Assembly: GCA_052327205.1 (NCBI GenBank)
Contig: CM126214.1
Location: 54,002,001-54,066,000, forward strand
Length of the DNA stretch: 64,000 bases
Reading direction: 5' to 3'
Source of the DNA: Somniosus microcephalus
Lineage: Eukaryota
In this document: piece by piece, positions 1-61,279 of the stretch
Layout of the letters: every line of letters starts with the position of its first letter
How positions within the stretch are numbered: position 1 is the stretch's first letter
Notes under the pieces: generated by a model
Seen by the model: only the letters and a program-made list of their open reading frames with translations
Database searches by the model: none
What the model was told of the DNA's origin: nothing
Made by a program: the position numbers and the translations under genes

Positions 1-2278
1 GTAAGACGATGCATGATCAGTGGTGTACATTTAAGGAGTTATTTTACAACTTCCAAAAAATATATATTCCACTGAGAAGAAAAGGGTGTAAAAGAAAAGA
101 CAGCCATCCGTGGCTAAGTAAAGAAATTAAGGATAGTATTCGACTAAAAACAAGGGCATATAAGGTAGCCAAATCTAGTGGGAGGATAGAGGATTGGGAA
201 AACTTCAAAAGACAGCAAAAAATAACAAAAAGATTGATTAAGAAAGGGAAGATAGATTATGAAAGTAAATTAGCAAAAAATATAAAAACAGATAGTAAGA
301 GTTTTTATAGTTATATAAAAAGAAAAAGGGTGGCTAAAGAAAATGTTGGTCCCTTAGAGGATGAGACCGGGAAATTAATGGTGGGAAATATGGAAATGGC
401 AAAAACACTGAATGAATATTTTGTATCAGTCTTTACAGTAGAAGACACTAAGAATATCCCAACACTGGACAAACAGGGGGCTATAGGGGGGGAGGAACTA
501 AACACGATCAAAATCACTAAGGAAGTGGTACTCGGTAAAATAATGGGACTCAAGGCGGATAAATCACCTGGATCTGATGGGTTACATCCTAGGGTCTTGA
601 GGGAAGTGGCGGTAGGGATTGTGGATGCATTGGTAATAATTTTCCAAAACTCCCTGGATTCAGCAAAGGTCCCGGCAGACTGGAAAACTGCTAATGTAAC
701 GCCCTTATTTAAAAAGGACAGTAGACAGAAGGCTGGAAACTATAGACCGGTTAGCCTAACATCTGTGGTAGGTAAAATATTGGAGTCCATTATTAAGGAG
801 ACAGTAACAGGACATTTGGATAATCATAATTTAATAGGACAAAGTCAGCATGGTTTTATGAAGGGGAAGTCATGTTTGACAAATTTGCTGGAGTTCTTTG
901 AGGAAGCAACATACAGGGTGGATAAAGGGGAACCAGTGGACATAGTGTATTTAGACTTCCAAAAGGCATTTGACAAGGTGCCACACAAAAGATTATTGCT
1001 TAAGATAAAAAATCACGGGATTTGGGGTAATATTCTGGCATGGATAGAGGATTGGCTATCTAACAGAAGGCAGAGAGTTGGGATAAATGGTTCATTCTCG
1101 GACTGGCAATCAGTAACTAGTGGTGTTCCACAGGGGTCAGTGCTGGGTCCCCAACTCTTTACAATCTATATTAACGATTTGGAGGAGGGGACCGAGTATA
1201 ACATATCAAAGTTTGCACATGATACTAAGATGGGAGGGAAAGTAGTGAGTGAGGAGGACATAAAAAACCTGCAAGGGGACATAGACAGGCTAAGTAAGTG
1301 GGCAGAGATTTGGCAGATGGAATACAATACTGGAAAGTGTGAGGTTATGCACTTTGGCAGGAAAAATCGTAGAGCAAGTTATTATCTTAATGGCAAGAAA
1401 CTGGAAAGTACTGAAGTACAAAGGGATCTGGGGGTCCTGGTGCACGAAACTCAAAAGGTTAGTATGCAGGTGCAGCAAGTGATTAAGAAGGCCAATGGAA
1501 TGTTGGCTTTCATTGCTAGGGGGATAGAATATAAAAATAGGGAGGTATTGCTTCAGTTGTACAAGGTATTGGTGAGACCGCACCTGGAATACTGCATACA
1601 GTTTTGGTGTCCATACTTAAGAAAAGACATACTTGCTCTCGAGTCAGTACAAAGAAGGTTCACTCGGTTAATCCCGGGGATGAGGGGAAGGACATATGAG
1701 GAGAGGTTGAGTAGATTGGGACTCTACTCATTGGAGTTCAGAAGAATGAGAGGCGATCTTATTGAAACATATAAGATTGTGAAGGGGTTGGATCGGGTGG
1801 ATGCAGGGAGGGTGTTCCCGATGATGGGTGAAACTAGAACTAGGGGGCATAGTCTTAGAATAAGGGGCTGCTCTTTCAAAACTGAGATGAGGAGGAACTA
1901 CTTCACTCAGAGGGTGGTAGGTCCATGGAATATGCTGCCCCAAAAAGCTGTAGAAGCTACAACATTACATAAATTTAAAACAGAAATAGACAGTTTCCTA
2001 GAAGTAAAGGGATTTAAGGGTTATGGGGAGCGGGCAGGAATTTGGACATGAGTCTAGGTTCGGATCGGTCATGGCCCTGTGGGTAGCGGAGTGGGCCCAG
2101 GGGACGTGTAGCCTGATCCTGCTCCTATTTCGTATGTCTAATTCTGTAAGATTCAGGAGATGGTTCTGTGATAGAAGATTGGCGGTTAGGATCAGATCAG
2201 CCATGATCTTATTGAATGGCGGAGCGGGCTCGAGGGGCCGATTGGCCTACTCCTGCTCCTATTTCTTATGTTCTTATG
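1..2278 (+). mobile_element. CR1-clade LINE, 3' part (ORF2 RT domain plus 3' UTR), cut by window edge; inserted into a Gypsy pol gene
   Basis: ORF 9-2051 has CR1 RT motifs (NYRPVSLTSVVGK, YLDFQKAFDKVPH, SGVPQGSVLGP, LVRPHLEYC). Ends in a (TTCTTATG)2 microsatellite tail at about 2263-2278, directly followed by in-frame Gypsy RT codons (VTVNP). Confidence 0.95.
9..2051 (+). CDS. CR1 ORF2 reverse transcriptase (partial; catalytic FADD reads FAHD, so probably inactive)
   Basis: 680-aa open frame, closely similar to the ORF2 at 20289-23198; ISKFAHDTK in place of ISKFADDTK. Confidence 0.9.
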   Translation: MHDQWCTFKELFYNFQKIYIPLRRKGCKRKDSHPWLSKEIKDSIRLKTRAYKVAKSSGRIEDWENFKRQQKITKRLIKKGKIDYESKLAKNIKTDSKSFYSYIKRKRVAKENVGPLEDETGKLMVGNMEMAKTLNEYFVSVFTVEDTKNIPTLDKQGAIGGEELNTIKITKEVVLGKIMGLKADKSPGSDGLHPRVLREVAVGIVDALVIIFQNSLDSAKVPADWKTANVTPLFKKDSRQKAGNYRPVSLTSVVGKILESIIKETVTGHLDNHNLIGQSQHGFMKGKSCLTNLLEFFEEATYRVDKGEPVDIVYLDFQKAFDKVPHKRLLLKIKNHGIWGNILAWIEDWLSNRRQRVGINGSFSDWQSVTSGVPQGSVLGPQLFTIYINDLEEGTEYNISKFAHDTKMGGKVVSEEDIKNLQGDIDRLSKWAEIWQMEYNTGKCEVMHFGRKNRRASYYLNGKKLESTEVQRDLGVLVHETQKVSMQVQQVIKKANGMLAFIARGIEYKNREVLLQLYKVLVRPHLEYCIQFWCPYLRKDILALESVQRRFTRLIPGMRGRTYEERLSRLGLYSLEFRRMRGDLIETYKIVKGLDRVDAGRVFPMMGETRTRGHSLRIRGCSFKTEMRRNYFTQRVVGPWNMLPQKAVEATTLHKFKTEIDSFLEVKGFKGYGERAGIWT

Positions 2279-5029
2279 TGACAGTGAACCCAGTCCTTCA
2301 CACTGTACAATATCCGCTTCTGCGGATTGAAGATATTTTCGCCTTGCTATCTGGAGGGAAGCGCTTCACTAAGATTGATCTGGCCCAGGCGTACCTGCAA
2401 ATGGAGGTAGAAGAAGCCTCAAAACAGTACCTCACGATCAACACTCATAAAGGTCTCTACCAATACAACCGGCTGGTGTTCGGGGTAGCATCAGCTCCAG
2501 CTATTTGGCAAAGGGCAATGGAACAAGTCCTGCAAGGGATTCCAGGGACCCAGTGTTATTTGGACGACATCCTGGTCACGGGCAAAAATGACAGTGATCA
2601 CCTCGCCAACCTGGAGCAGGTGCTCACTAGATTGAAGGAATATGGGCTCCGAGCTAATCACCACAAATGCGAGTTTTTCCAGAAGCAGATCTCGTATTGT
2701 GGCCACGTTATTGATAAAGCGAGGTTACATAAGTCCCCTGAAAAGATTGAGGCAGTAGTCAAGGCTCCAGCACCGGAAAATGTGTCACAACTGAGGTCGT
2801 TCCTCGGGCTGAACTACTATCATAAGTTCTTGCCGAATTTGTCTACCGTACTACACCCACTGAACACCCTACTGCAAACGGGGGTACCATGGAAGTGGAG
2901 TGACGAATGTAAACGAGCTTTCCAGAAGAGCAAAGCATTGATCACATCAAAAGAGGTGTTGGCTCATTTCAACCCAGCACTACCAATTCGGTTGGCGTGT
3001 GATGCATCACCCTATGGCATTGGAGCAGTGCTGTCGCACAAATTCCCGGACGGCTCGGAGAGGCCAGTAGCCTTTGCGTCTCGGTCACTAACCTCAGCCG
3101 AGCGTAACTACGCCCAGATTGACAGGGAGGCCCTCAGCCTAGCGTGGGGAGTGAAAAAGTTCAATCACTATCTGCACGGGCAGAAGTTCACCTTGCTGAC
3201 TGACCACCAACCACTTGGCTCCAACTTTAACCCAAAGAAGGGCGTTCCGGTGATGACTGCGCAATGGCTACAAAGATGGTCCCTTTTTCTAGGGGCACAC
3301 CAATATGAAATCGATTATAAGGGCACGAAACAGCATGGAAACGCTGATGGGCTATCACGCCTGCCACTGCCTACTGCGGAGGAAGCACCAGCAGTGGATC
3401 CTGTCGAAATATTTCATTCGACTATAATTGAATGCTTGCCAGTAACTAATGCTGGTATAGAGAAGGAGACCCGAAATGACCCGACACTGTCTCGGTATAT
3501 GATTTGACGGTGAAGGGATGGCCAGCACATGGTGACTCACTGTTGCCAGCATTCTCATCCAGAAGAGAACAGCTGTCAGTATGCCAGGGGACCTTGATGT
3601 GTGGATCCCGAGTGGTAATTCCACCCACATTAAGGGAGAGAGTGCTCAATGAGCTTCACGAAGGTCATCTGGGCGGGGTGAAAATGAAAAGCCTTGCTAG
3701 GGCTTATGTGTGGTGGCCGGGGATTGATCAGCAAATCGAGGACCTGACAAAGAGCTGCTCAGGATGCCAGAAAGTCCAAAATGCACCACCACATGCCCCT
3801 CTACACCCATGGGAGTAGCCCTCATCTCCATGGCAACGGGTGCATATTGATTTTGCTGGTCCATTCATGGACTCAATGTTTTTAATAGCCGTGGATGCGC
3901 ACTCGAAATGGCCTGAGGTGATCAAAATGTCCTCCACCACCACGGAGAAAACTATTGCAGTCCTACGGACCATTTTTGCCAGGAACGGCTTGCCAGAGCA
4001 GATTTGCTCTGATAACGGACCACAGTTTGTGTCCGAAGAGTTTTGAATATTTATGAAAAGGAATGGGGTAAGGCATTACACATCCGCCCCTTATCATCCA
4101 GCCACAAATGGATTGGCTGAGAGGTTAGTACAAACCTTTAAAAAAGCAGTAAAGGCCATGTGCGATGACGACATTCCACTGCAGCATAAGGTGGACAATT
4201 TCCTGTTAGCCTACAGAAATGCGACACTTGCAGTCACCAACCAGGCCCCGGCCATGATGTTCTTTAACCGAAGGTTGAGATCTCGTCTGGATTTGCTCAG
4301 ACCAAATGTACGAAGAGATGTTGAGAGTAAGCAATTCCAGCACATCAATGAGAAGCCGACAAGGAGCTTCAATGTAGGGCAACCAGTCTTGGCCCGCGAC
4401 TACCGAACAGAGAAATGGCAACCAGGAACGATATGCACACGGCAGGGGCCACTAATGTACACAGTGGATGTTGGGGAGTACATTGTGAGACGCCATGCTG
4501 ACCAGATCCTAGAGTCACAGGAACGAGTCAACCCCATGTCTCGGCCATACGTACCTGGTGAGGAACCCGACGTACAGGTCGCATCTACTTCAGAAACAAT
4601 AGCATTGGAAGCTGATGAATCAACTGACGACAGGGTGTTAGAATCGCCTCCGCACCAAGAGCGAGACACTCGGGCAAGGCGTTATCCAGAAAGAATCAGG
4701 AAGCCTCCCCAAAGACTGAATTTATAAATAGACTATTTTCAGTTAATGTTGCATGTTAAAAGTGTTAATTGTAATTAGTTTGATATTTAATTGTTAAATG
4801 AGTGTTATGGTACTGTTAATCTAAAAGGGGAGGAATTGTAATGTATGTACCTTTAAGGGGGAGAACTACTTTTTACAGCTCCTGTATCCTGTAGTACCGG
4901 CAGTGACCACACCTGTATATAAACCCTGAGTAGTGATCTGTACAGTCAGTTGCAGTTTGAAACCTCATTCAGTAAACACCTGTTGATCGTTCCCTGCAGT
5001 CTGTTGTCTGATTATTGAAGGACACAACA
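2279..5029 (+). mobile_element. Ty3/Gypsy LTR retrotransposon (Mag-like), 3' portion: degenerate pol, PPT and 3' LTR
   Basis: RT (YLDDILV), RNase H (LACDASPYGIGAVL), integrase zinc finger (LHEGH..C..C) and core (SDNGPQF, NGLAERLV); pol ends PPQRLNL at 4727. Stops at about 3505, 3816 and 4044 plus a frameshift. Confidence 0.93.
4837..5029 (+). repeat. 3' LTR (193 bp) of the Gypsy element
   Basis: Follows polypurine tract AAAAGGGGAGGAA (4823-4835); TG...CA termini (TGTAATG...CACAACA); internal TATATAAA and AGTAAA. Confidence 0.8.
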
Positions 5030-13467: not shown

Positions 13468-13766
13468 TGTGATGAAATATTCCATTCACCACTGCCTGTG
13501 ACTGAGATCGGTTTCAGTGTCATTTCCCTTCCCCCAGACCTCATTGTATTGTGCACTGGAATGTGCTGTATTGTATACTGGAATGTGCTGGAATGTGCTG
13601 TGTGTAGGGCTCCGCCCATACCTGGCCCCGTTTGTAAGCTAGCTTCAGTCTGGCCTCAGTCTCCAGAAGGAAGACATCTCTCTCTCTTACGTGTTACTTT
13701 CTAAGTTAATAAAAGCCTTGTTTTTGTTCTGCTAACTTCGAGTCTCGGAATTATTGAGGCACATCA
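13468..13766 (+). repeat. 5' LTR
   Basis: Direct repeat of 17522-17820; AATAAA at 13708-13713. Confidence 0.97.
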
Positions 13767-13792
13767 ATTTTATTAACTTATTTTTCAACACT

Positions 13793-16700
13793 ATGGATCA
13801 ACTCCTGAAACCCAAACGTTTGGATTTGGATCAACATGCTCCGGACGCATCAGCACGCTTCGGACACTGGTTTGAGTGTATGGAATTCTTCCTGGACAAT
13901 TCCGCAACCGTCAAAGACGCTACGGACGCTGCGAGGATGAGACTCGGAATTCTGCGGAATTGGGTAAGCCACCGGGTTTACCCCCTCATCCAAGACGCCG
14001 AGACGTACCTGGCCGCCTGCGACATCTTAAAGGCGCATTACCAGCAGCCTACGAATGAGGTGTATGCTAGGCACCTGCTCGCTACCCGCGCACAGCGACC
14101 TGGGGAATCGGTGGAGGAGTTCCTAAGCACCCTGAAAATGCTTGGCAAAGACGGCAAGTGCCGAGATGTAAAAGCCGCGGTGTACACTGACGAGCTTGTT
14201 CGCGATGCCTTCATCACAGGCCTCAGCTCCACTTACATCCGGCAAAGACTGCTGGAAAAAACGGGGTTGGACCTGAAACAGGCTGCGGACACCGCACGAT
14301 CCCTGGATGTGGCCCAGAGAAACTCGGACGCCTACTCTTCAGCCCGCGCCATCCACGCCGCCACGCGTGCACCGAGGGCGCCGCCATCTTGGAAGGCATC
14401 TTCCCCGCCCGACAGCCCGACACCGGCTGGGCCCCGCTCTCCCCCCAGAAGCCCTACGACAGCCGCGACGCGTCAGGGACCCAACTGCTACTTCTGCGGG
14501 CAGCCAAAGCACACCAGAAACCTGTGCCCGGCGAAAGGCACCACCTGCTTTAAGTGCGGTAAGAAGGGGCACTTCGGGAAGGTGTGCAGAGGGAACCCCA
14601 CCGGAAAACCAACCACCGGAAAACCCGCCACCGCCGCGTGTGCGCCGTGGGAGCGGCCATCTTGGACGCCATCTTGCCCGACCTCGTGGGGTCCGCCATC
14701 TTGTGAGCAGACAGCGTGGACGCCATCTTGTATCGATCAGGGCCCTACAGTGGCATCGGTCACAGTGGACCAGACCAGGCCGCACCCGCTATCCAGATCA
14801 ATGGTGGACATCGAGGTAAACGGGTGCCGGGTTAAATGCTTAATTGACAGTGGAAGCACGGAGAGCTTTATCCACCCAGAACTGGCACAACAACTCTCCC
14901 TAAAGGTGGTCCCTACTCAGGGTACCATCTCTATGGCTGATAAAACCCAGACATCGACCATTCTGGGTTACTGCACGGTACAATTGTGCGTTAACGGAAC
15001 TGTATATGATAATTTTAAAGTATTAATCATGAAGAACCTATGTGCGAGCGTGATCTTGGGCCTGGATTTCCAGTGCAACCACCAAAGCATCACGCTCAAG
15101 TACGGTGGGTCCCAGCCGCCCCTCACAGTGTGCGGTCTGGCTACCCTGAAGGTAAAGCCGCCTTCGCTATTCGCGAACCTTACCCCTAACTGCCGGCCAA
15201 TAGCGACCAAAAGCAGGGGGTACAGCTGGGAGGACAGGCGGTTTATCGCGACCGAGGTAGACAGGCTCCTGAAAGAGCGCATTATTGAACGCAGCAACAG
15301 CCCGTGGCGCGCCCAAGTGGTAGTGGTAAGGGGTAGCGAGAAGAAACGGATGGTGATCGACTATAGTCAAACGATCAACAGGTACACCCTACTAGACGCC
15401 TACCCGCTACCCCGCATATCAGAAATGGTGAACCAAATCGCCCAATACCGGGTGTTCTCGACCATCGACCTCAAGTCAGCGTACCACCAGCTCCCTATCA
15501 GACCAGAGGACCGCCCGTACACCGCCTTCGAGGCGAACGGACGCCTCTACCAATTCCTCAGAGTCCCCTTTGGGGTGACGAATGGGGTCTCGGTCTTCCA
15601 GAGGGAGATGGACCGCATGGTCGATGACCACCACTTGCAGGCAACCTTCCCCTACCTCGACAACGTCACCATCTGCGGTCACAACCAGCAGGATCACGAC
15701 TCGAACCTCGAGAGGTTCCTGAAAACCGCACAAAAACTCAACCTCACCTACAACGAGGACAAGTGCGTTTACAACACCACGCGCCTCTGCATACTAGGCA
15801 GCGTGGTGGAGAATGGGGAAATCGGGCCAGACCCCGACCGATTGCGCCCCCTACGGGAGCTGCCCCTGCCCAACACTCCCAAAGCCCTGAAAAGGTGCCT
15901 GGGGTTATTTTCTTATTATTCCCAATGGGTCCCCAACTACTCCGACAAAGCCCGCCCCCTCTTGAAAACATCCTCTTTCCCGCTCTCTGCTGAGGCCCAC
16001 GCCGCCTTCAAAAGCATTAAGCAGGATATTGAGCGGGCCACGCTACAGGCAGTGGACGAGAACACTCCATTTCAAGTGGAAAGTGATGCGTCTGACTTCG
16101 CCTTGGCGGCCACCCTCAACCAGGCGGGGCGGCCCGTAGCTTTCTTCTCCAAGGGCCCGAGATCAGACACTCCTCCGTGGAAAAGGAGGCCCAAGCCATC
16201 GTGGAGGCAGTGCGCCACTGGCGCCACTACCTAGCCGGCAAACGCTTCACCCTACTTACCGACCAGCGGTCGGTAGCGTTTATTTTCAATAATAAACAGA
16301 GGGGGAAGATTAAAAATGATAAGATTCTTAGGTGGTGGATCGAGCTCTCCACCTTCGAGTACGACATCATTTACCGGCCAGGGGCCCTTAACGAATCCCC
16401 TGACGCCCTCTCACGAGGGATGTGTGCCAGCGCCACCGGGGATCGGCTACAGACCCTCCACAACGACCTCTGCCACCCAGGGGTCACGCGGCTGTTCCAC
16501 TTCATAAAGTCCCGTAACTTACCCTACTCGATTGAGGAAGTTCGGTCCCTGACCAGGAACTGCCGCACTTGCGCTGAGTGCAAGCCTCGGTTCTACCGCC
16601 CAGATAGAGCCCACTTAATCAAAGCTACACGGCCCTTTGAGCGGCTCAGCTTAGATTTCAAGGGCCCCCTCCCATCCGTCGACCGCAATGTTTACTTCCT

Positions 16701-17511
16701 GAACATTGTGGACGAATACTCCCGGTTCCCATTCGCCTTCCCCTGCCCAGACATGACCAGCGCCACGGTCATTAAATGCCTCAACAGCCTGTTCTGCCTG
16801 TTCGGTATGCCGAGCTACATCCATACGGATAGGGGGGCGTCCTTCATGAGTGAAGAGCTACGCCAGTACATGCTGTCCAAGGGGATCGCCACGAGCCGTA
16901 CCACCAGCTACAACCCCCGGGATAACGGCCAAGTGGAGCGAGAGAACGGAACAGTATGGAAAGCAGTCACTCTAGCTCTAAGGACCAAGGGCCTCCCTAT
17001 CCCCCGCTGGCAGGAAGTCCTCTTGGATGTGCTCCATTCGATACAGTCGCTATTGTGTACGGCCACTAATACCACGCCTCATGAACGAATGTTTGTCTTT
17101 CCCCGGAAATCCACCTCAGGCGTATCCATGCCGTCATGGCTCTCCACCCCAGGTCCGATACTCGTGCGAAGGCATGTGAGGGGCCACAAGACGGACCCTC
17201 TCGTGGAGCCAGTACACCTACTCCACGCCAACCCCCAATACGCATATGTCCGGCACGCCGACGGAAGGGAGGACACCGTGTCCATAAAAGACGTCGCCCC
17301 AGCCGGCATCGACAACAACCACGGCAATAGCGGCAACGACGATCACAGCAACTCTTACCCACCCACTACTCTTTCATCACCCCCGGAAGAACACCGACCA
17401 ACGGCACCCCCACCAACTACCCCTCCAACAACCCTGGCGGCACCCGCGGCACCGCAACAGCCACGTCGGTCGCAGAGGACTATCAAACCCCCGAACAGAC
17501 TAAATCTATAG
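13793..17511 (+). pseudogene. gag-pol polyprotein (Gag with 2 CCHC knuckles, PR, RT, RNase H, IN) with one frameshift near 16150
   Basis: CYFCGQPKH..C and CFKCGKKGHFGKVC, LIDSGS, YLDNV, VESDASDFA, HTDRG..GQVER. ORF 13754-16234 switches to frame 16177-17511 at FFS|, where about 10 nt (expected RTLQ-like codons) seem deleted. Confidence 0.92.
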
Positions 17512-18940: not shown

Positions 18941-19431
18941 TTCAGTAGCAAAGCCTGCTACTCAGGCAACCTTTTCTCTTGCAGTCCAGTACAAATTGTG
19001 ATAGCCTGGGTCTCCTGTGTGAAATGTCTGGCTGCTAACTCACATACATTCCTGGAGAAATCCAACGTGCTGTGCTTTGTACTGTCACAATCTCAACATG
19101 AACTCCCAACAGGGTGCTCGACACCAGAAGAAGTAGGCTTTTACTGTCAATGTCTCAATTACAGCAGCCTCCAAGTTCAATCACTTTGTCACTCTTGGCC
19201 TCCTCTCTTTTCCTGAGGGAGCTCTCAAGCTACATCTTAAAGTCAGGTTTTGTGCCGTTTTATTCTTCTTGGAGACTTTTTCCAGCCCTCCCTCCACCCC
19301 CCGTCCATCCTAACTGAGATCAATTAACTCAGGACTGATTGGGAGCTGAGGCCAGGACATTCTTGTCCTGTGTGGCTCAGCAGCACCGTGGCCAGTGCAT
19401 TTGTGAGCTGGGCTATTAGGGGAGCTATCCC

Positions 19432-20241
19432 ATGGAGCTGCGAATGGACTCACTCTGGAGCATACGCGATGCTGAGGATGTTGTGGATAGCACATTCAGT
19501 GAGTTGGTCACACCGCAGGTAAAGGCTAGCTCAGACAGTAAATGGGTGACCAAAAGGCAGGGTAAAGGCAGGAAGGTAGTGCAGGAGTCACCTGCGGTCA
19601 TCTCCCTCCAAAACAGGTTTACCGTTTTGGGTACTGTTGGGGGAGATGACTTATCAGGGGAAGGCACCAGCAGCCAGGTTCAGGGCACCATGACTGGCTC
19701 TGCTGCACAGAAGGGCGGGAAAAAGAGGGATAGGGCTATAGTGATAGGGGATTCAATTGTAAGGGGGATAGATAGGAGTTTCTGTGGCCGAGACCGAGAC
19801 TCCAAGATGGTATGTTGCCTCCCTGGTGCAAGGGTCAAGGATGTCTCGGAGCGGGTGCAGAGCATTCTGAAGGGGGAGGGGGATCAGCCAGTTGTCGTGG
19901 TACATGTAGGTACCAACGATGTAGGTAAAAAGAGGGAGGAGGTCCTACAAGCTGAATTTAGGGAGTTAGGAGCTAAATTGAAAAGTAGGACCTCAAAGGT
20001 AGTAATCTCTGGATTGCTACCAGTGCCACGAGCTAATAAGTTTAGAGAGAGTAAGATAGATAAGCTAAATATGTGGCTTGAGCAGTGGTGCAAGGGAGAG
20101 GGATTTAAATTCTTGAGGCATTGGAACCAGTTCTTGGGGAGGAGTGACCTGTACCAAGGGGACGGTCTACACCTGAACTGTGAGGGAGCCGATGTCCTCG
20201 GGGTAATATTTTCTAGGGCGGTTCGGGAGGATTTAAACTAA
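19432..20241 (+). CDS. CR1 ORF1 with SGNH/GDSL esterase domain (N-terminus missing)
   Basis: IVIGDSIVR, CCLPGA, VHVGTND and DGLHLN motifs; LQNRF motif. Confidence 0.92.
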   Translation: MELRMDSLWSIRDAEDVVDSTFSELVTPQVKASSDSKWVTKRQGKGRKVVQESPAVISLQNRFTVLGTVGGDDLSGEGTSSQVQGTMTGSAAQKGGKKRDRAIVIGDSIVRGIDRSFCGRDRDSKMVCCLPGARVKDVSERVQSILKGEGDQPVVVVHVGTNDVGKKREEVLQAEFRELGAKLKSRTSKVVISGLLPVPRANKFRESKIDKLNMWLEQWCKGEGFKFLRHWNQFLGRSDLYQGDGLHLNCEGADVLGVIFSRAVREDLN

Positions 20242-23200
20242 TTTGGCAGGGGGATGGGAACCTAGGTAGTGGAAAAGAGGGAAGTCATATGAAGTCAGAA
20301 ATAGATGGTAGAAAGGTGAGAAGCAATAAGCAAAGGAGAGAAACACAAAGGGCCAAACTAATTCATAATGAGAGTGTGAAAAAAGCAAGCCTGAAGGCTT
20401 TGTATCTTAATGCTAGAAGCATTAGGAACAAGGTGGATGAATTAGTTGTGGAAATAGAGGTAAACAAGTATGATTTGATTGGGATTACAGAAACGTGGCT
20501 GCAGGGTGGGCAAGGCTGGGAACTTAACATCCAGGGATATACAATATTTAGGAAGGATCGGCAAAAAGGTAGGGGAGGTGGGGTAGCATTGCTGGTAAAG
20601 GAGGGGATTAATGCAATGGAAAGGAAGGATATTAACTCGGATGAAACGGAATCTGTATGGGTAGAAATGAGAAATAGCAAGGGGAGGAAAACGTTAGTGG
20701 GTGTGATATATAGGCCTCCAAATAGTAATATGGAGGTGAGGGAAGGCATAAAAAGGGAAATTAGAGAAGCGTGCGATAAGAGCACAGCTGTCATCATGGG
20801 TGACTTTAATTTACATATTGATTGGACTACCCAAATTAGTAAAAATTCTGAGGAGGAGGAATTCCTGGAATGTTTTCGGGACGGTTATCTGGACCAATAT
20901 GTCGAGGAGCCGACTCGAGATCAGGCCATTTTAGACTGGGTATTGTGCAATGAGAAGGGACTTATCAGCAATCTTCTTGTACGAGGCCCCTTGGGTCAGA
21001 GCGATCATAATATGATCGAGCTCTCAGTCGAGATGGAGAGTGAGGAAATTGAATCAGAGACTAAGGTCCAGAACTTAAATAAAGGGAATTACGAGGGTAT
21101 GAGACGGGAATTGGGTAAGATTGATTGGGTGGTGTTTCTGGGGGGATTGACAGTGGATAGACAATGGCAAGCATTCAAAGATAGAATGGAAGAATTCCAG
21201 AACATGTTTATACCGGTTTGGCATAAAAATAAACCTAAAAAGGTGACTCAACCGTGGATAACGAGGGAAATTAGGGACAGCATAAAATCAAAAAAAAGGG
21301 CATATCAACTGGCAAAAAAAAGCACCAGACCGGAAGATTGGGGGCAGTACAGGATACAGCAAAAGAGGACAAAGGGATTAATCAGGAAGGGGAAAATAGA
21401 ATACGAAAGTAAACTTGCAGCAAACATAAAGACAGACTGCAAAAGCTTTTATCGGTATATCAGGAGGAAAAGACTGGTAAAATCCCAAGTCGGTCCCTTG
21501 CAGTCCGATTCGGGAGAATATATAATGGAGAATAAGGAAATGGCAGACCAATTAAACTCATACTTTGGTTCTGTATTCACAAAGGAGGACACAAATAACC
21601 TCCCAGGAATATCGGCAAACATAGGGACTAATGAGAGGGAGGAGCTGACAGAAATTAGTATCTCTAGGGATATGGTGTTGGGTAAGTTGAGGGGACTGAA
21701 GGCCGACAAATCCCCGGGGCCTGATAAACTACATCCTAGGGTACTTAAGGAGGTGGCCCTGGAGATAGCAGATGCTCTAAGGATCATCTTCCGGAACTCC
21801 ATTGACTCGGGAACAGTACCCGTGGATTGGAGGGTAGCTAATGTTACCCCAATATTTAAAAAGGGGGGTAGAGAGAAAGCAGGGAATTATAGACCAGTAA
21901 GCCTTACATCGGTTGTGGGCAAAATGCTAGAGTCCATTATTAAGGGTAAAATAGCGGAGCACTTGACAAATGGGGAAAGGATCGGACAGAGTCAACATGG
22001 ATTTACAAAGGGTAAATCGTGTTTGACTAATCTGCTGGAATTTTTTGAGGAAGTAACTGGTAAAATAGATGGGGGAGAGCCAGTGGATGTGGTGTACCTT
22101 GACTTCCAGAAAGCCTTCGATAAGGTTCCACACAAAAGATTATCATGCAAAATTAAGGCTCATGGGATTGGGGGCAAAGTATTAACGTGGATAGAGAACT
22201 GGCTGGCGGATAGAAAACAGAGAGTTGGAATAAACGGCTCGTTTTCGGAGTGGCAGGCAGTGACCAGCGGGGTGCCGCAAGGATCTGTCCTGGGACCCCA
22301 GCTGTTCACAATATATATAAATGATCTGGATCAGGGAATTGGATGCAATATTTCCAAATTCGCTGACGACACTAAACTAGGAGGAGGGGTGGGCTCTGAT
22401 GAGGATGTCAGGAGGCTACAGTGCGATTTGGACAGGTTGGGGGAATGGGCGGATACGTGGCAGATGCACTATAATGTGGATAAATGCGAGGTTATCCACT
22501 TTGGGGGTAAAAACAGGAGGGTAGATTATTATCTAAATGGCAATAGATTGGGAGATGGGGAAGTGCAGAGGGACCTGGGTGTTCTTGTGCACCAGTCACT
22601 GAAGGAGAGCATGCAGGTGCAACAGGCGATTAAGAAGGCAAATGGTATGTTGGCCTTCATATCAAGGGGGTTCGAGTATAGGAATAGGGATACCTTACTA
22701 CAGCTGTACAAGGTGCTGGTGAGACCGCATCTGGAGTATTGTGTACAGTTTTGGTCGCCCCATCTGCGGAAGGATGTTCTTGCCATGGAAAGAGTGCAAC
22801 GGCGATTCACCAGGCTGATACCTGGAATGGCGGGAATGACCTACGAAGAGAGATTAAATAGTTTGGGCTTGTACTCACTGGAGTTTAGAAGATTGAGAGG
22901 GGATCTCATCGAAACATATAAAATTATGGCAGGCCTGGACAGGCTGAATTCAGAGAGAATGTTTCCAATGGCCGGGGAGCACAGAACCAGGGGCCACAGT
23001 CTAAAAATAGCAGGCAAATCATTTAAAACAGAGATGAGGAAGAATTTCTTCACTCAAAGAGTGGTGAGCCTGTGGAATTCCCTGCCACAGAGGGCTGTGA
23101 AGGCTAATTCAATAAATATTTTCAAGAGAGAATTGGATATATTTCTGAAGGCTAAGGGGATTAAGGGTTACGGAGAAAAGGCGGGGACGGGGTACTGAAC

Positions 23201-37808: not shown

Positions 37809-38476
37809 GGTCCAGGGACTGCCTTGAGGAAATATGCCTGCTGCTGAGATGGAGTTATGTTTAAACTAGTCTGTCCCTTTAAGGTCACAGAGTGTACTCA
37901 GCGCTTTAAAATAGTCACTTCCTAAGGTCAGTTAGAGACTATTTATGGTTTGCCTCTAGATTGACAATGGATTGTAAACCCATGATTCTTTCACTAAGAG
38001 GAGGCCAGGTTATCAAAGTTTGCAGCCAACACAAAGCTGGGTCAGCGTGTATGCTGTGAGGAGGATGCTGAGAAACTCCAGTATGATTTGGACAGGTTGG
38101 GTGATTGGGCAGATGCATGGCAGATGCAGTATAATGTGGATACATGCGAGATTATCTACTTTGGTGGCAAAAACAGGAAGGCAGATTATTATCTGAATGG
38201 CAATAGATTGGGAGAAGGGGAAGTGCAAAGAATCCTGGGTGTCCTTGTGCACCAGTCACTGAAGGTAAGCATGCAGGTGCAGCAGGCGGTTAAGAAGGCA
38301 AATGGTATGTTGGCCTTCGTAGCGAGAGGATTCGATTACAGGAACAAGGATGTCTTGCTGCAGTTGTACAGGGCCTTGGTGAGACCACAACTTGAGTATT
38401 GTGTGCAGTTTTGGTCACCTTATCTGAGGAAGGATGTTCTTGCCATGGAGGGAGTGCAGCGAAGATTCACCAGACT

Positions 38477-38733
38477 TGTTAAATCTGTGAGTTGTTCAAG
38501 TAATTAATACTCAGACTTAATCAGTAACAATAAAACAGGTCTTTACTGGTTGGAGGTAGGGACTATACGTAGGTCTTTACTTCATGCCCACAGGCGGGAA
38601 CTGAGGGGATATCAGTACCCACAGTACTATTTATACCCCTATGGCCAGGAGTGGTACTGCGTATCACTACGCCCAACAAGTAGTGCAGTCCTGTCCATAG
38701 GTTCAAAGTAGCACACATATTACATACACAACA
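38477..38733 (-). repeat. 3' LTR
   Basis: Direct repeat of 41860-42116, adjacent to the PPT. Confidence 0.97.
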
Positions 38734-39049
38734 TTCCTCCCTTCCTAGCTTTACAGTCATCTCCCCATTTAACATAACGTAATAACATATATACATATAT
38801 AACTTCAGGTTTACATAACAGAATAACATAGATACATAGATAACTTCATGTCAAAACAGATCACAGATTCAGTCTCTGCGGAAAACAGTTCACAGATTCA
38901 ATCTCTGTGGTGGAGTCGGTTCACGTTGCTGGAGTGACTCATTCAATAGTCCTTCCATGGATTTAACAGTTTGAACTTCCGAACTGAATTGGCTCCGTTC
39001 GGAGGGACCACGTGTGTGATCTGGTAGAGGTGATAATGGTTCAGATGGG

Positions 39050-39300
39050 TCATCTTCTGTTTTTACTTTTCCTTTTCTGCTTCTTGGAGACTCTCTGGGC
39101 TCCATTGTCAGCTGCCACAGCTGCCAGCTGCATGCGCAGTTCCTCCTTCTCTTCCTCCTGTTTCCGTCGTAGAGCCAGCTTCTCCCGATGTTCCGTAGAC
39201 TTTTGGTGCTCCTCCATGATTTCTGCACTTTGGGAGTCGAAGTTACAAGCTGGGCAGGACAGGACATCGTAATATTCGGTGTCGTCCACCAGGTCATAGT
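39050..39300 (-). other. DNAJC21: Captured segment resembling the first C2H2 zinc finger and basic tract of DNAJC21
   Basis: YDVLSCPAC...[23 protein letters not shown]...[10 protein letters not shown] resembles recalled DNAJC21 YDDLYCPAC...[25 protein letters not shown]...QKLSKKQKKK. Confidence 0.68.
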
Positions 39301-41305
39301 AATATTCGGTGTCGTCCTGAGCTAGACCAGTGAGAGGGTCGTCTATTTCCTCCATACCCAGCTGGACGTTAGCCAGCTCTTGTTCCAAATCCAGACATCT
39401 TTCCTGAAGAGACTTCTTCATGTGTACCTCTGCATCCAGCTTTTTCTGGGCTTTCAGCAAGTCGTTTACTAGTGACCTCATTTGTGATTTTAATACTTCA
39501 ACTTCCTTTGGAGATTGATTGATCGGACTATGCAATCCCTCTACCGGAGCAGCTGTTTCAGCGGCCTGTTGTTCTACGTTGACGTGAGTCAGCGTACTTT
39601 TGGCATCCAAGGGCTGCTCTGTTGCAGTCATCTCAGTCTGTGTTGCCACCTCAGCTCTTCCAATAACCTTTGAGAGCTCCGAACCCCTTTCGTTTGAATA
39701 TTGAAGTTCGTGTTCAAGTTTTTCCCATTTCAGAGTCCTGTCCTTCAGCATATGCAGGAGTTGGCTGACCGTTAACTCCTCTGACATCAGACGTTTTGTG
39801 TGCTCCTGTTCCATTTTCTCCATCAGCTGCTTCTGTTGTCTTTCCAGATTCTCCAACTCTATATCAAAGAACTCTTTCGTTGCATTCAACTCTTGCTCAC
39901 AACGGCGAAGCATTTGTTCTAATTGCTGTTGTAGTTTGAAATGGAGTTGAGTTCGAGCCCGGTGTCCCTCAGAAATGGGCACATCAGTAGACTTGCCAGA
40001 CTCAGAATCCACAGTTAAACTATGTTGTTGTTGCTCAGTGGAATTCTGTGCTGAAACTTTGTCTTTTGCACCTGAGTTGGGCTTACCATCATCCGTTCCA
40101 GAGTCTGGGCCGACTATCTTCACCGAGTTCTCACTCGTTATTGTTTGTAGGAAATGCCAGTCCATATTCATTTTCCTAATCCACTCCCGTCCTAGTAGTG
40201 GAGGACCTCCTTCAGATATCACATATAAGTCCATTATTTGACTGTCTTCGCCCTTGTGGACCACTGCAACCTCTATTTTCCCGATGGGGTACACTCTTTG
40301 CCCCGTGTATGTTTCCAATATAATCCCCGTATCCTGTAGGGGAATATGTTGGAATAACTTTCCGTAATCTTTCTTATTTATGACCGTCAATGCCGATCCA
40401 GTGTCCAATTCCAGTTTTACTTGGACTCCTTCTATCTGAAGAGTGACCCAAATTGTCTGGAGGTCTGCACCCTTACCAGCGTTGAGTACTCTTAAGCTAG
40501 CCAGTTCATTACAGCTTAAGCTAGCCAGTTCATTACTGCTAGCGTCTGAATCGGACTCCTGTTCGGTCACCTTGTGTACCTTTGCGTATTTTCCTTGCGG
40601 TGACTTCTTGTTGCTGGTCTTCTTCCCTGACCTGCATACTCTAGCTATATGTCCAAGCCTACCACAAGTTCTACATTCTTGGTTTTTAAACCAACACTGG
40701 TTCTGATCATGCGTTGTCTTTCCACAACGATAACATTTGCCAGAACTCACACCCAATTTGTGTGCACTGAGCTCCGGTGACCGTAGCTGCATTACTGCCG
40801 TGCCTCTCGCTGCGGCTTCGTGTGCTGCTGCCATAGTGACCGCCTTCTCAAGCATCAGCTCATTCTCCTCGAGCAGTCGCTTTTGTGTATCCTATTTAAA
40901 TAAACCACACACAAATTTGTCTCGAAGTGCCTCTGTCAGTCCCGTTCCAAACTGGCAATATTTCGCTAATTTACGCAATTCCAGCAAATAATCAGCATTG
41001 CTTTCATGCTGTAGCTGCCTTCTGTCATAAAATTTAAATTGTTCCGCTAGCATCAGCGGCGTGGGGTTTAGATGATCTTTCAGGACAGTAACAATCTCAT
41101 CGAACGTCTTATCCGCCGGTTCATCTGGTGATAACAGGTGTTTCAATTGCCCGTATGTCTTCGCACCCATTAAATTTAATAATGTTAGAGCTTTATCTTG
41201 GTCACGAATTTTATTGGCCTTACAATAATTTTTTACTCTTTCAACATATATGGCCCAATCTTCGAGGTCACTATCAAAGGTGCTAATATTCCCGTGTTTA
41301 GGCAT
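39050..41305 (-). CDS. Chimeric Gag-protease-(STK10/OPTN/DNAJC21-like) polyprotein, about 751 codons, with one in-frame TAG at 40892-40894
   Basis: ORFs 40892-41392 and 39050-40855 are in the same frame. Gag (LRDKFVCGL), two knuckles ([22 protein letters not shown]), protease LELDTGS..LLGREW, then coiled-coil segments and a C2H2-type finger. Confidence 0.88.
39347..39784 (-). other. OPTN: Captured segment resembling the optineurin central coiled coil
   Basis: EELTVSQLL..., RAEVATQTE and [36 protein letters not shown] align in order with recalled [21 protein letters not shown] and [36 protein letters not shown]. Confidence 0.8.
39788..39970 (-). other. STK10: Captured segment resembling the STK10/LOK (SLK family) C-terminal coiled coil (PKK region)
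   Basis: [57 protein letters not shown] resembles recalled STK10 EEHRNQTQL...[42 protein letters not shown]. Confidence 0.8.
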
Positions 41306-41848
41306 TGTAGATTTGCAATTTCTCAGATTTTTTTTTTTTTTACTGCTATCCAAGATGGCGGCTTCCCGCTCTTGCCGTCGTCCTCCGCCCACAAAATGAC
41401 GGTTTTCCCGCGCTTGGCGGTCTTCACCCGTCCCCCAACGCCGTCTCCCTTCAGCCCCCGAGTGCGGCCCTTATCTTCGCCGCGATCGCCCGAGTGCGGC
41501 CCTTATCAGCGGATGCGATCGCTGGATCGCGAAGCAGCTCTCGGCTCTTATCAGGAGATGCGATCGCTCCGTTGAAACGCCTCCCGCTTGAAGCGGCTCT
41601 CGCGCCCTATTCCTCCAGCTCCCCCAGCCCCGTTCGTGCGGCCAACGCGGTCGACTGCCTGTCGCGTCGCTGCCCGGCTCAGACAACGGCTTACCCACCA
41701 CCAAGCTGGAGAAGAAGCTGACGGTCGCCGATGGAGGCTCCGAGGTCAGGATGTCTTCCAGTGGGGTGGAGAGGGTGGAAACCTCTCTGCAACGTCCTGG
41801 CTGTGGACGAAGCTGCCGTGGAGTGACTGCCGCAGGGTCCGAATCAGA

Positions 41849-41858
41849 CTCGTCGCCA
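41849..41858 (-). promoter_or_regulatory. Primer binding site complementary to the 3' end of tRNA-Ser(GCU)
   Basis: TGGCGACGAG lies 1 nt downstream of the 5' LTR; it is the complement of ...CUCGUCGCCA. Confidence 0.8.
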
Positions 41859-41859
41859 G

Positions 41860-42116
41860 TGTTAAATCTGTGAGTTGTTCAAGTAATTAATACTCAGACT
41901 TAATCAGTAACAATAAAACAGGTCTTTACTGGTTGGAGGTAGGGACTATACGTAGGTCTTTACTTCATGCCCACAGGCGGGAACTGAGGGGAGATCAGTA
42001 CCCACAGTACTATTTATACCCCTATGGCCAGGAGTGGTACTGCGTATCACTACGCCCAACAAGTAGTGCAGTCCTGTCCATAGGTTCAAAGTAGCACACA
42101 TATTACATACACAACA
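41860..42116 (-). repeat. 5' LTR
   Basis: Direct repeat of 38477-38733. Confidence 0.97.
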
Positions 42117-42985
42117 AGACTGATACCTGGGATGGCAGAAATGATGTATGAGGAGAGATTGGGTCGATTGGGCTTATACTCGCTGGAGTTTAGAAGAATG
42201 AGAGGGGATCTCATTGAAACTTATAAAATTCTAACAGGACTAGACAGGCTAGATGCAGGAAGGATGTTCCCGATGGCAGGGGAGTCCAGAACCAGGGGTC
42301 ACAGTCTAAAGATAAGGGGTAAGCCATTTAGGGCAGAGATGAGGAGGAATTTCTTCACCCAGAGAGTGGTGAACCTGTGGAATTCTCTACCACAGAATAT
42401 ATTCAAGAAGGAGTTAGATATATTTCTTAAGGCTAAAGGGATCAAGGGCTATGGGGAGAAAGCAGGGACAGGGTACTGAATTTGGATGATCAGCCATGAT
42501 CTCATTAAATGGCAGAGCAGGCTCAAGTGGCCAAATTGCCTACTCCTGGTCCTATCTTCTATGTTTCTATGTTAAACCAACAGGGAATGACTGGCTTTCT
42601 TTCTCTTTTTTTATACTTTTCTAACGATTGCTCAGTTACGACTTGTTGCTGTTTTATGAATGTAATACCTGAGCCAATCTGGTATAAGTGTGGCACTTTG
42701 CATGCTTGGCATTTTCAAGTGGAATTATTTCTAGTGTGACACTTAGAGATGTGGTGGATGAGCTAAATGTAAGACTTTAATATTTATACTCGCTGATCTC
42801 CTGTGATGTTGCTTATGGTAAATTGGATGATTACAAGGACAGATTATACCATGAAACACACGTTATATTATTCTGCTGCCAAGATGATTCAGTATTCAGT
42901 GTCACGTTAAGGCCACAAAGTGTATTTGATGTAAATAGGTACACCTTGCGATCAATTAGAGGTTAGTTGCTATCATAGAAACATA

Positions 42986-59062: not shown

Positions 59063-59400
59063 TTTACAAAGCCGAGTACTGTCCTACCACAAATAAATTG
59101 ACACCTGTGCATCTGCGTACAGCGAGCAAGAACGCTTGCTGCTGACCAGGAAACCCTCCCCCGGGGCTGATTTCTGCCCCTGTCTGCGTTCCGCTGGGCC
59201 TTAGCGGAGCGCCCAGCTCCTGCTCCGCGGATCTCACCTGCCTGATTTACTGAGCCTGGCTGCTGGGAAGACTTTTTTTTTTAAACTGAACACTGCGAAT
59301 CCCGTGTTGTTTGCGTTGTGGGGGGAGGTGGGCCATCGGCTGCATTTGGAGTGGTGTGCCGGGAGCCAGCGGCGCCAGCCAGGCCAGTATAAAAGCAGCT

Positions 59401-59922
59401 GCCCGTGGGACCGGTGGGTGCCCGCTGCCCGTGGGACCGGTGGGTGCCCGCTGCCCGTGGGACCGGTGGGTGCCCGTGGTACCGGTGGCTGTCCGCTGAC
59501 CGGTGGGTGCCCGTGGGACCGGTGGGTGCCCGCTGCCCGTGGGACCGGTGGGTGCCCGTGGTACTGGTGGGTGCCTGCTGCCCATGGTACCGGTGGGTGC
59601 CTGCTGCCCGTGGGACCGGTGGGTGCCCATGGGACCGGTGGGTGCCCGCTGCCCGTGGGACCGGTGGCTGCCCGTGGGACCGGTGGGTGCCTGCTGCCCG
59701 TGGGACCAGTGGGTGCCCGTGGTACTGGTGGGTGCCTGCTGCCCATGGTACCGGTGGGTGCCCGCTGCCCGTGGGACCGGTGGCTGCCCGTGGGACCGGT
59801 GGGTGCCCGTGGTACTGGTGGGTGCCTGCTGCCCATGGTACCGGTGGGTGCCTGCTGCCCGTGGGACCGGTGGGTGCCCGTGGGACCGGTGGGTGCCTGC
59901 TGCCCGTGGGACCGGTGGGTGC
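59401..59922. repeat. GC-rich minisatellite (19-bp core GCCCGTGGGACCGGTGGGT with optional 7-bp GCCYGCT)
   Basis: More than 20 tandem variant units; explains the repetitive ORFs in all frames. Confidence 0.95.
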
Positions 59923-61279
59923 TCACAGCATCACATCCCAGCAAGGAATCAATGCCTTTAGAAGAGAAGGAGATAGGAAAAGAGATAAACGGAGAGAAAG
60001 AAGTGTTTGGGGGGGGGGGGGAGGGGTCGGGGGGATGCTCACACTTTGCTGCTTTCTAACTACTCTTTGTGAAAACGACAGTGATTATCGATGTTCCCTT
60101 GGATGAGTGTCACAAGCGCACTGTGGCGTATGTGTAATTCTCCTGGGGATGGTGGGGAGTGTGGGGGGGTGGTTCCCGTCACTCATGTAGTGTGCGAGTG
60201 GCACAGCAGGATACAGAGAGCTGGGCTGATTTGCCGTCAGCCACAAGGCACGGGGTTTGTATGGTAGGTTCACAGGACACGAAGGGCCGTTGGTTAAGTG
60301 TGCCTCTCAGCCTTAATCTGCAGCCAGCTGCTGGTGATTCTGCAGAGCGGCCCATTGACTGTCACTTGATTTTATTCTGTTGCGCCGGTGAATTGAGAAT
60401 GGGTCGAGGCAGTGGGCAGGAATTCGCTGGGCAGAGAATGAAAGTAAGCCTTTCAGATAAACTATGTTGTCCCAGGGCTTATTTAATTCGTACCAATCAG
60501 CTAAAGCAAAAACGGCAATGAAGCCAATGCTCTTCAAATGTGCCGATGCACTCCTTGCTTCACATTGCTAGCACAGCGAGTGACAGACCTGGAACTCTGC
60601 CGCACTTCATCCCAGGGCTGTACCAGCCCCAGCATCCTCTCGTCAGACACAAAGCCAGCTTTGAGAGGACAGAATCCCAGAGCCACACTGCTCGCTGTTT
60701 CTTTTCCACTGTTCCCTAGTTTTTCCCTTCCAATACTCTTTGCTGCTCTCATCAAAGCCATCCAACCCCGTGTCTTTAACCTGCTGTCACATCGCGAGGT
60801 GCTTGACAGAGTGGCCTGTAAGGTGGAAGAATTAGAAGGGAGCCAGGGCGGGGCGGTGGGGATGGAGCTGGTCTCTTAAAGCCAGAGAGCAATGTATCAA
60901 GGCAGAGAGGTTCAATCGGGGAGTTCCAGAGTGGTGCCGAGGAGCGATGATAAACTCGATGACAGAGCAGCCAGGGGCAATGGACACACAGGAGACCAGA
61001 ATTGGAACACAGAAAGGCGCAGGCTGGGAGGGATGGTTGGAGAATGTTGCCTCACTATTCCTTACTTGCTGAGTCAATGTGGGATCTTGCTGATCATAAA
61101 TTGTAAGTTCAACGTGCTGAATTTTTTTTAAATGGTGCAGTACCATTAACTGCCACCGGGTGTCTCTAGCAGCCTATGAAAGTGTTGGAGGGTACATTGT
61201 ATCGAGTGTGCAATGTAGTGCCACCTCGTGGCAAAGAGGTTATGAACTTTTCCTGTCTTTTTGCTCATATGTGTCTGCT

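Follow-up and report, generated by a model that had tools for sequence, protein, structure and literature searches.

We analysed a 64,000-nucleotide window of the genome of the shark Somniosus microcephalus (GenBank assembly GCA_052327205.1, contig CM126214.1, positions 54,002,001 to 54,066,000). On its reverse strand lies a non-autonomous Ty3/Gypsy long terminal repeat (LTR) retrotransposon, inserted into a CR1 ORF2 which it interrupts, in which a host-derived cargo is fused in frame to gag and protease and occupies the place of most of pol (Table 1). The structural signals listed in a first-pass annotation of the same sequence were all recovered: the LTRs, each of 257 nt with TG..CA ends, differ by 1 mismatch and are flanked by a 5-bp target-site duplication (TSD; AGTCT on the element strand), a polypurine tract (PPT) adjoins the 3' LTR, and a primer-binding site (PBS)-like TGGCGACGAG, which we take to fit tRNA-Ser, lies 1 nt past the 5' LTR. 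The gag and aspartyl protease are related to Gypsy Gag-Pol, and the gag-pro region is 57-66% identical in amino acids to that of a family having reverse transcriptase (RT) and RNase H. We presume the element to be Mag-like on two traits, a single gag-pol frame and two CCHC knuckles. Two CCHC knuckles were found, and the stretch from gag through protease to the start of RT forms one open frame in L054, a copy of the pol-type sister family described below.

Gag starts at 41305 and is broken by a TAG; the frame is then open for 613 codons, as far as 39050, and encodes two zinc knuckles and an aspartyl protease (Pfam) followed by 363 codons of cargo. Below, family A denotes the family of the window element, which has the shorter cargo, and family B the family with the longer cargo. 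Pfam searches of the window open reading frame (ORF) and of two family-B ORFs gave 0 matches to RT, RNase H or integrase, and no env-like frame lay between the cargo and the PPT of the window element. The earlier claim that pol had been replaced holds for these domains, although remnants of the RT start (in some copies) and of the integrase tail survive.

Captured host sequences

The first-pass annotation had assigned the cargo to three host fragments, STK10, optineurin (OPTN) and DNAJC21. Homology matches to each were obtained, and a further 57-codon segment, here called X, had not been singled out. The final 363 codons of the frame matched Pfam PKK (PF12474) above its cut-off (32.9 versus 25 bits), and the STK10-like piece aligned with two host exons on C8 at 92-93% nucleotide identity, lacking the ~1-kb intron. 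This gene was the nearest of three paralogues to STK10-like queries over a shared exon (80% versus 70% and 48%), and we assume that the donor was STK10 rather than SLK. The optineurin piece was 71% identical in amino acids to sawshark OPTN (E 1e-49), with the best optineurin matches all coming from sharks, which suggests a squalomorph host, and aligned with four host exons on C17 (80-92% nucleotide identity) from which three introns were absent. Because the host introns are absent from the element, the STK10 and OPTN pieces derive from spliced mRNA, which bears out the mRNA capture proposed initially.

For the third piece, DNAJC21 was named in all 3 matches returned from 67 candidates (best E 5.6e-4). 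In related elements a less changed form scored above the cut-off for a JAZ finger and matched DNAJC21 of the great white shark at 66-74% identity, and over a short length the basic tract was identical to DNAJC21. These matches, all at the protein level, point to a DNAJC21 origin; the corresponding finger exon was not found in the 20 kb downstream of host exon 4, nor by two motif searches. An ESM Atlas search for the donor of segment X gave no usable match, and a PDB sequence search with the cargo gave 0 matches.

The remaining two reading frames of the cargo are interrupted by 24 and 21 stops. AlphaFold, run on the single sequence (pLDDT 71, pTM 0.28), predicted one helix of 113 residues that spans the joint between the STK10 and OPTN pieces, which suggests that the two coiled coils merge into one.

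Several observations concern the host genes themselves. There are three STK10/SLK-like genes, not two, at C8:167.2 Mb, C8:2.2 Mb and C30:27.5 Mb. An intronless STK10-like stretch of 225 open codons within a CR1 element on C3 (L035:1498-2172) is probably a processed pseudogene. Compared with the elements and with the sawshark protein, the host OPTN on C17 (L048:4385-4395 and ~4960) contains two single extra bases close to one exon border; the assembly may be wrong here, or the host gene may be broken.

Family size and copy variation

A DNA search of the 6.45-Gb assembly gave 3,190 candidates, of which 40 were scored; all were 93-100% identical across most of their length, and 30 were retrieved for copy analysis. 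A script located the LTR pair in 28 of the 30 copies, and 26 of these 28 pairs differed at 0-2 of 257 sites; an exact 5-bp TSD was likewise present in 26 of the 28. The frame from gag through the cargo was open in 24/30 close copies, one of which ends 39 codons early. Five loci (L006, L009, L011, L012 and L013) share one flank and are duplicates of one insertion, and when they are counted once, 21 of 26 independent insertions are open. Another locus, L016, has two unlike LTRs without a TSD and is either a recombinant or a mis-join. The TAG at 40892, which had been queried at first pass, occurs in 2 of the 30 copies and is not a family trait.

Genome-wide counts of the joints, which are motif matches and not verified full-length copies, came to 4,310 for the family A STK10-OPTN joint (control 1), 4,134 for the family B STK10-OPTN joint (control 0) and 9,647 for the OPTN-DNAJC21 joint (control 1), with 882 further matches (control 11) in which OPTN runs directly into the pol tail and the DNAJC21 module is absent. 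Capture followed by mass amplification is virtually certain, and the proposal that the family replicates with its cargo is supported both by these counts and by copies with TSDs. The OPTN 3' joints exceed the A and B 5' joints combined by ~2,000, and further cargo variants may exist. In family B, 87 of the 150 matches listed, taken from a list ranked by protein score, sit in open frames of at least 840 codons. Two B copies, L049 and L050, were picked for their long frames; that of L050 (1487-5725) reads on without a shift into part of a CR1 ORF2 and reaches 1,413 open codons. A 71-nt LTR/PBS search returned no matches.

Transcription

Two RNA runs from one study (X6 and X7), whose species label may differ from that of the assembly, were aligned at 94% likeness, and depth on the element may include reads of related families. 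In X6, cargo bins held 263-1,154 first mates on the plus strand versus 11-61 on the minus strand, with the CR1 flanks near 1:1, indicating sense RNA provided that the library has the usual direction. The TAG of the window copy was missing from ~8-9 of 10 RNA reads across that site. In addition, 92 X6 reads link unknown sequence to the OPTN piece at window position 39778, perhaps through splicing into a cryptic acceptor or from another variant.

Cassette history and a candidate helper

Family B carries 69 STK10 codons and OPTN residues 131-384, whereas family A has lost 318 nt, in frame, across the STK10-OPTN joint, where the flanking stretches share 7/8 bases. The joint in the window copy stems from this later deletion and is therefore not a capture joint; of the initial view that the joints are in-frame captures, the open frame stands but this joint is secondary. 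An RT-start remnant of ~20 codons is retained in some B copies, and the integrase-tail remnant is kept in all. Since B reads into the integrase tail and A stops earlier, in the DNAJC21 frame, the reading frame finishes with a basic tract in each family.

Synonymous divergence (dS) between A and B is 0.05-0.2 in the cargo and 0.6-0.9 in gag-pro, and comparison of their LTRs (157/269 columns) indicates that the backbone is not common to both. Since the cargo is common to A and B but the backbones differ, the cassette appears to have crossed onto a second backbone near the end of the protease, and from these alignments we consider a swap between Gypsy backbones highly probable.

A pol-type sister, recognised by a motif running from protease into RT, gave 2,631 genome matches; cargo carriers (~10,500 joints) outnumber it, although the exact-motif count is a floor. 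Its copy L054 has the same PBS and, in the 2.4 kb that were read, one uninterrupted frame from gag-pro into RT. The gag-pro of this copy is ~90% identical in nucleotides to A and 79% to B and joins A with 100% support in a tree of nine sequences, and 157 reads of run X7 go from the protease of A into pol-type sister sequence. The sister is the likely helper on these sequence grounds, in keeping with the mobilisation in trans suggested at first pass. The family A lineage changes ~4-5 times faster than its sisters, gag-pro included, and the diverged look of the cargo beside near-identical LTRs, which had been noted earlier, comes partly from this rate.

The L053 pol family (window 2008-4727) was rejected as backbone donor, being too distant (57-66% amino acid identity). 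The sequence at 2008-4727 is a Gypsy pol remnant of a large family, with 102 scored matches at 95-97% amino acid identity or better, and an LTR start beside it (~4836-4940) resembles that of family B.

Probable selection on the frame and tests of selection on residues

Along the A branch, 0 stops were found among 127 changes where 5.5 were expected (P 0.004), and for the cargo only, A and B differ at 105 positions with 0 stops against 4.5 expected (P 0.011). Indels among A copies were in frame in 4/5 cases within the ORF versus 2/20 outside it (P 0.005), with the limit that two of the five ORF indels may be one event. Through >120 substitutions and some dozen indels or changes of module, the source lineage never lost the frame. 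Private non-synonymous changes were also below expectation (59 versus 80, P 0.009). We conclude that the frame is very probably under selection.

Residue-level effects were slighter. The STK10 and OPTN pieces underwent 13-17 synonymous versus 22-26 non-synonymous changes on the A branch, and when pooled with gag-pro showed weak constraint (P 0.03). About half of the 42 codons of the finger changed, with 24 non-synonymous to 3 synonymous changes and all four zinc ligands kept, and subfamilies A1 and A2 differ in the finger by 9 non-synonymous and 0 synonymous changes. Against the private ratio (60:39), the 24:3 ratio gave P 0.005, or 0.017 without four shifted codons, but it was non-significant against a CpG-aware neutral share (P 0.08-0.13), and the segment was chosen post hoc and contains a local 4-nt shift. 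Two apparent signals were discarded. The raw ratio of non-synonymous to synonymous rates (dN/dS) of OPTN, 0.4-0.6, was rejected as purifying selection after the private-change and CpG-aware controls, and an omega of 0.12-0.25 between A and B in gag-pro was rejected as selection while non-autonomous, the divergence being older than the cassette swap.

Other features of the window

Table 1. Parts of the element and its flanks, in window coordinates
Feature	Position	Strand	Basis or remark
Target-site duplication, 5' side	42117..42121	.	same letters as 38472-38476
5' LTR, 257 nt	41860..42116	-	LTR-pair comparison
Primer-binding site (PBS)	41849..41858	-	same 10-mer in family B and pol-type sister
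gag, two CCHC knuckles, broken by TAG 40892-40894 in the window copy	40460..41305	-	
Aspartyl protease	40142..40459	-	putative backbone/cassette crossover near its end, ~40155
Segment X, 57 codons, predicted disordered, longer in family B	39971..40141	-	
STK10-like coiled-coil piece, two spliced host exons	39789..39970	-	host exons on C8 and PF12474
Optineurin central coiled coil, four spliced host exons	39345..39796	-	host exons on C17 and sawshark OPTN
DNAJC21-like module: C2H2 (JAZ) finger ~39283-39158, acidic helix, basic tract, stop	39050..39344	-	protein-level matches
pol/integrase C-terminal tail remnant	38890..39049	-	out of frame in family A, in frame in family B
Polypurine tract (PPT)	38734..38746	-	
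3' LTR, 257 nt	38477..38733	-	
Target-site duplication, 3' side	38472..38476	.	

Elsewhere in the window lie another Gypsy-like gag-pol in two frames (13736-17511), distant from the element family (26% amino acid identity), a CR1 LINE with open frames of 273 and 993 codons (19420-23198) and a GC-rich tandem repeat with several frames open (59205-60106).

Discussion

The reading we favour, and regard as reasonably probable, is that of a helper-dependent Gypsy family which makes its own Gag-protease and carries the cargo as a stand-in for Pol. RT would have switched template onto co-packaged spliced mRNAs, exchanging most of pol for X, STK10, OPTN and DNAJC21 sequence; the missing introns indicate such a replacement for the STK10 and OPTN pieces, and X and the DNAJC21 piece presumably arrived in the same way. 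The cassette would then have been trimmed by in-frame deletions and transferred to a second gag-pro backbone, as the comparison of A with B indicates. Its RNA would be translated as a single Gag-PR-cargo polyprotein in place of Gag-Pol, RT and integrase may be supplied by pol-bearing relatives with the same PBS, and selection acting on source elements would hold the frame open. As a substitute for Pol, the cargo would be a lengthy coiled-coil region, translatable and with a tail that is basic, which keeps the RNA without an early stop; it may also help the protease to pair, its exact residues being weakly constrained. This role for the cargo is proposed tentatively. A lead in this direction is the leucine zipper which, placed behind HIV protease, increases protease activity (PMC3291649).

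Several observations weigh against this interpretation. The same zipper is described there as lowering particle yield, and tighter protease pairing is thus no plain benefit. Set beside the CpG-aware neutral share, which was 0.30, residue constraint in the STK10 and OPTN pieces was non-significant (P 0.19-0.36), their change ratio equals that of private changes (39:60 synonymous to non-synonymous), and gag-pro on the A branch is itself weakly constrained (P 0.02-0.16). The suggestion that the fusion is under selection is accordingly upheld for the frame, which is held open beyond chance, but not for the amino acids of the cargo. With regard to the helper, a motif joining the exact protease end of A to RT gave 0 matches in the genome, and the pol-type candidate was read over its first 2.4 kb only. 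Finally, run X7 was mixed-strand, with 78-272 versus 73-212 first mates.

Of the other explanations, the one that survives best, although we think it unlikely, gives the cargo protein a specific job against the host, either as a dominant-negative optineurin partner or through a finger re-tuned by positive selection. The excess of non-synonymous changes in a finger with intact zinc ligands, its continuation between A1 and A2, the prevalence of the DNAJC21 joint (9,647 versus 882 without it) and the retention in family B of the optineurin LIR motif would all fit such a job. However, the finger excess loses significance against the CpG-aware share and comes from a segment picked after the fact, family A dropped the LIR-bearing part yet spread equally widely, and the captured pieces are without kinase, J domain or ubiquitin-binding parts.

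Less probable still is an effect exerted by the RNA alone, in which any open frame lets an RNA with a long tail escape nonsense-mediated decay, or resemblance to host sequence protects the element against silencing by small RNAs, and the protein is an inert filler cut off by the protease. Only the host frame of the cargo is open, and selection on openness alone would therefore suffice for in-frame capture; the weak residue-level constraint agrees with this, and camouflage by captured sequence has been proposed in plants (PMC13317346). It leaves unexplained that the two well-mapped pieces should both be coiled coils, merging into a single predicted helix, that each family should end in a basic tract drawn from a different source, and that the finger should change fast. 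Neutral hitch-hiking, in which a handful of source copies, favoured by luck and by strong LTRs, multiplied any cargo they held, would explain open frames by youth, since near-identical LTR pairs imply few stops after insertion and Tan et al. attribute in-frame young retrocopies to youth (PMC5131818), but it is very improbable given a source lineage that kept its frame through so many substitutions and module changes and given the shortfall of private non-synonymous changes.

Returning to the cargo as a stand-in for Pol in a helper-dependent family, a broader form of the idea is that the host-derived cassette serves vertebrate Gypsy elements as an accessory module that can be transferred, one that raises the fitness of its carriers, jumps between backbones and has its finger under positive selection in conflict with host or helper. 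We consider this generalisation doubtful.

Known systems share parts of this organisation. Acutely transforming gag-onc retroviruses likewise have pol replaced in frame with gag by host coding sequence and depend on helpers; the shark element differs in its Gypsy backbone, three or four donors and germ-line amplification, with no env found and nothing to suggest a domain competent for signalling. Gypsy elements of the Mag clade and non-autonomous gag-only elements such as TR-GAG offer the single gag-pol frame, two CCHC knuckles and 5-bp TSD in the one case and the loss of RT, RNase H and integrase in the other, but the shark element keeps its protease, and a host-derived coding cargo replaces pol. 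Maize Bs1 is an LTR element with pieces of three host genes in one chimeric gene that is transcribed and translated and has undergone secondary retroposition (PMC13317346, PMC5131818). Bs1, however, has 1-5 copies (PMC5131818), in contrast to the ~10,500 joints, vertebrate host, two gag-pro backbones and ongoing in-frame remodelling seen here. The LTR-mediated retrocopies of Tan et al. 2016 (PMC5131818) involve template switching, chimeras of several genes and later rounds of copying, with examples from zebrafish, chicken and mouse; they resemble the shark element in placing partial spliced mRNAs between LTR parts, in chimerism and in further copying rounds, and also show microsimilarity at joints and sense transcription. 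In the shark element, microsimilarity amounts to 7/8 nt at the secondary STK10-OPTN joint, and the primary joints have one donor side missing. The retrocopies are young and occupy a small number of loci (3-10 retrocopies in mosquito, zebrafish and chicken; PMC5131818), unlike the shark chimera, which makes up a major repeat family whose Gag-PR fusion frame has been held, and a review describes transduced frames in LTR elements as occurring at one or few copies (PMC7264820). No description of this family, nor of capture on this scale, of such a cassette swap or of a frame held in this way, was met in the literature searched, which lay outside the repeat databases Repbase and Dfam and most subscription papers. 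The capture mechanism is already known; what surprises is how large the family has become, that its fusion frame has been held and that the cassette has moved from one backbone to another.

Taken together, whereas captured gene pieces in LTR elements are described as rare, low-copy by-products, one lineage here has reached about ten thousand copies in translatable form, and the family would make up as much as ~0.6% of the 6.45-Gb genome if most copies are full length. It records, in many copies and with dates, how exons are shuffled when selection acts at the level of the element, and makes testable whether captured host sequence benefits a transposon. Thousands of transcribed OPTN, STK10 and DNAJC21 fragments will confuse the annotation and read mapping of those genes, and they could affect the host genes themselves.

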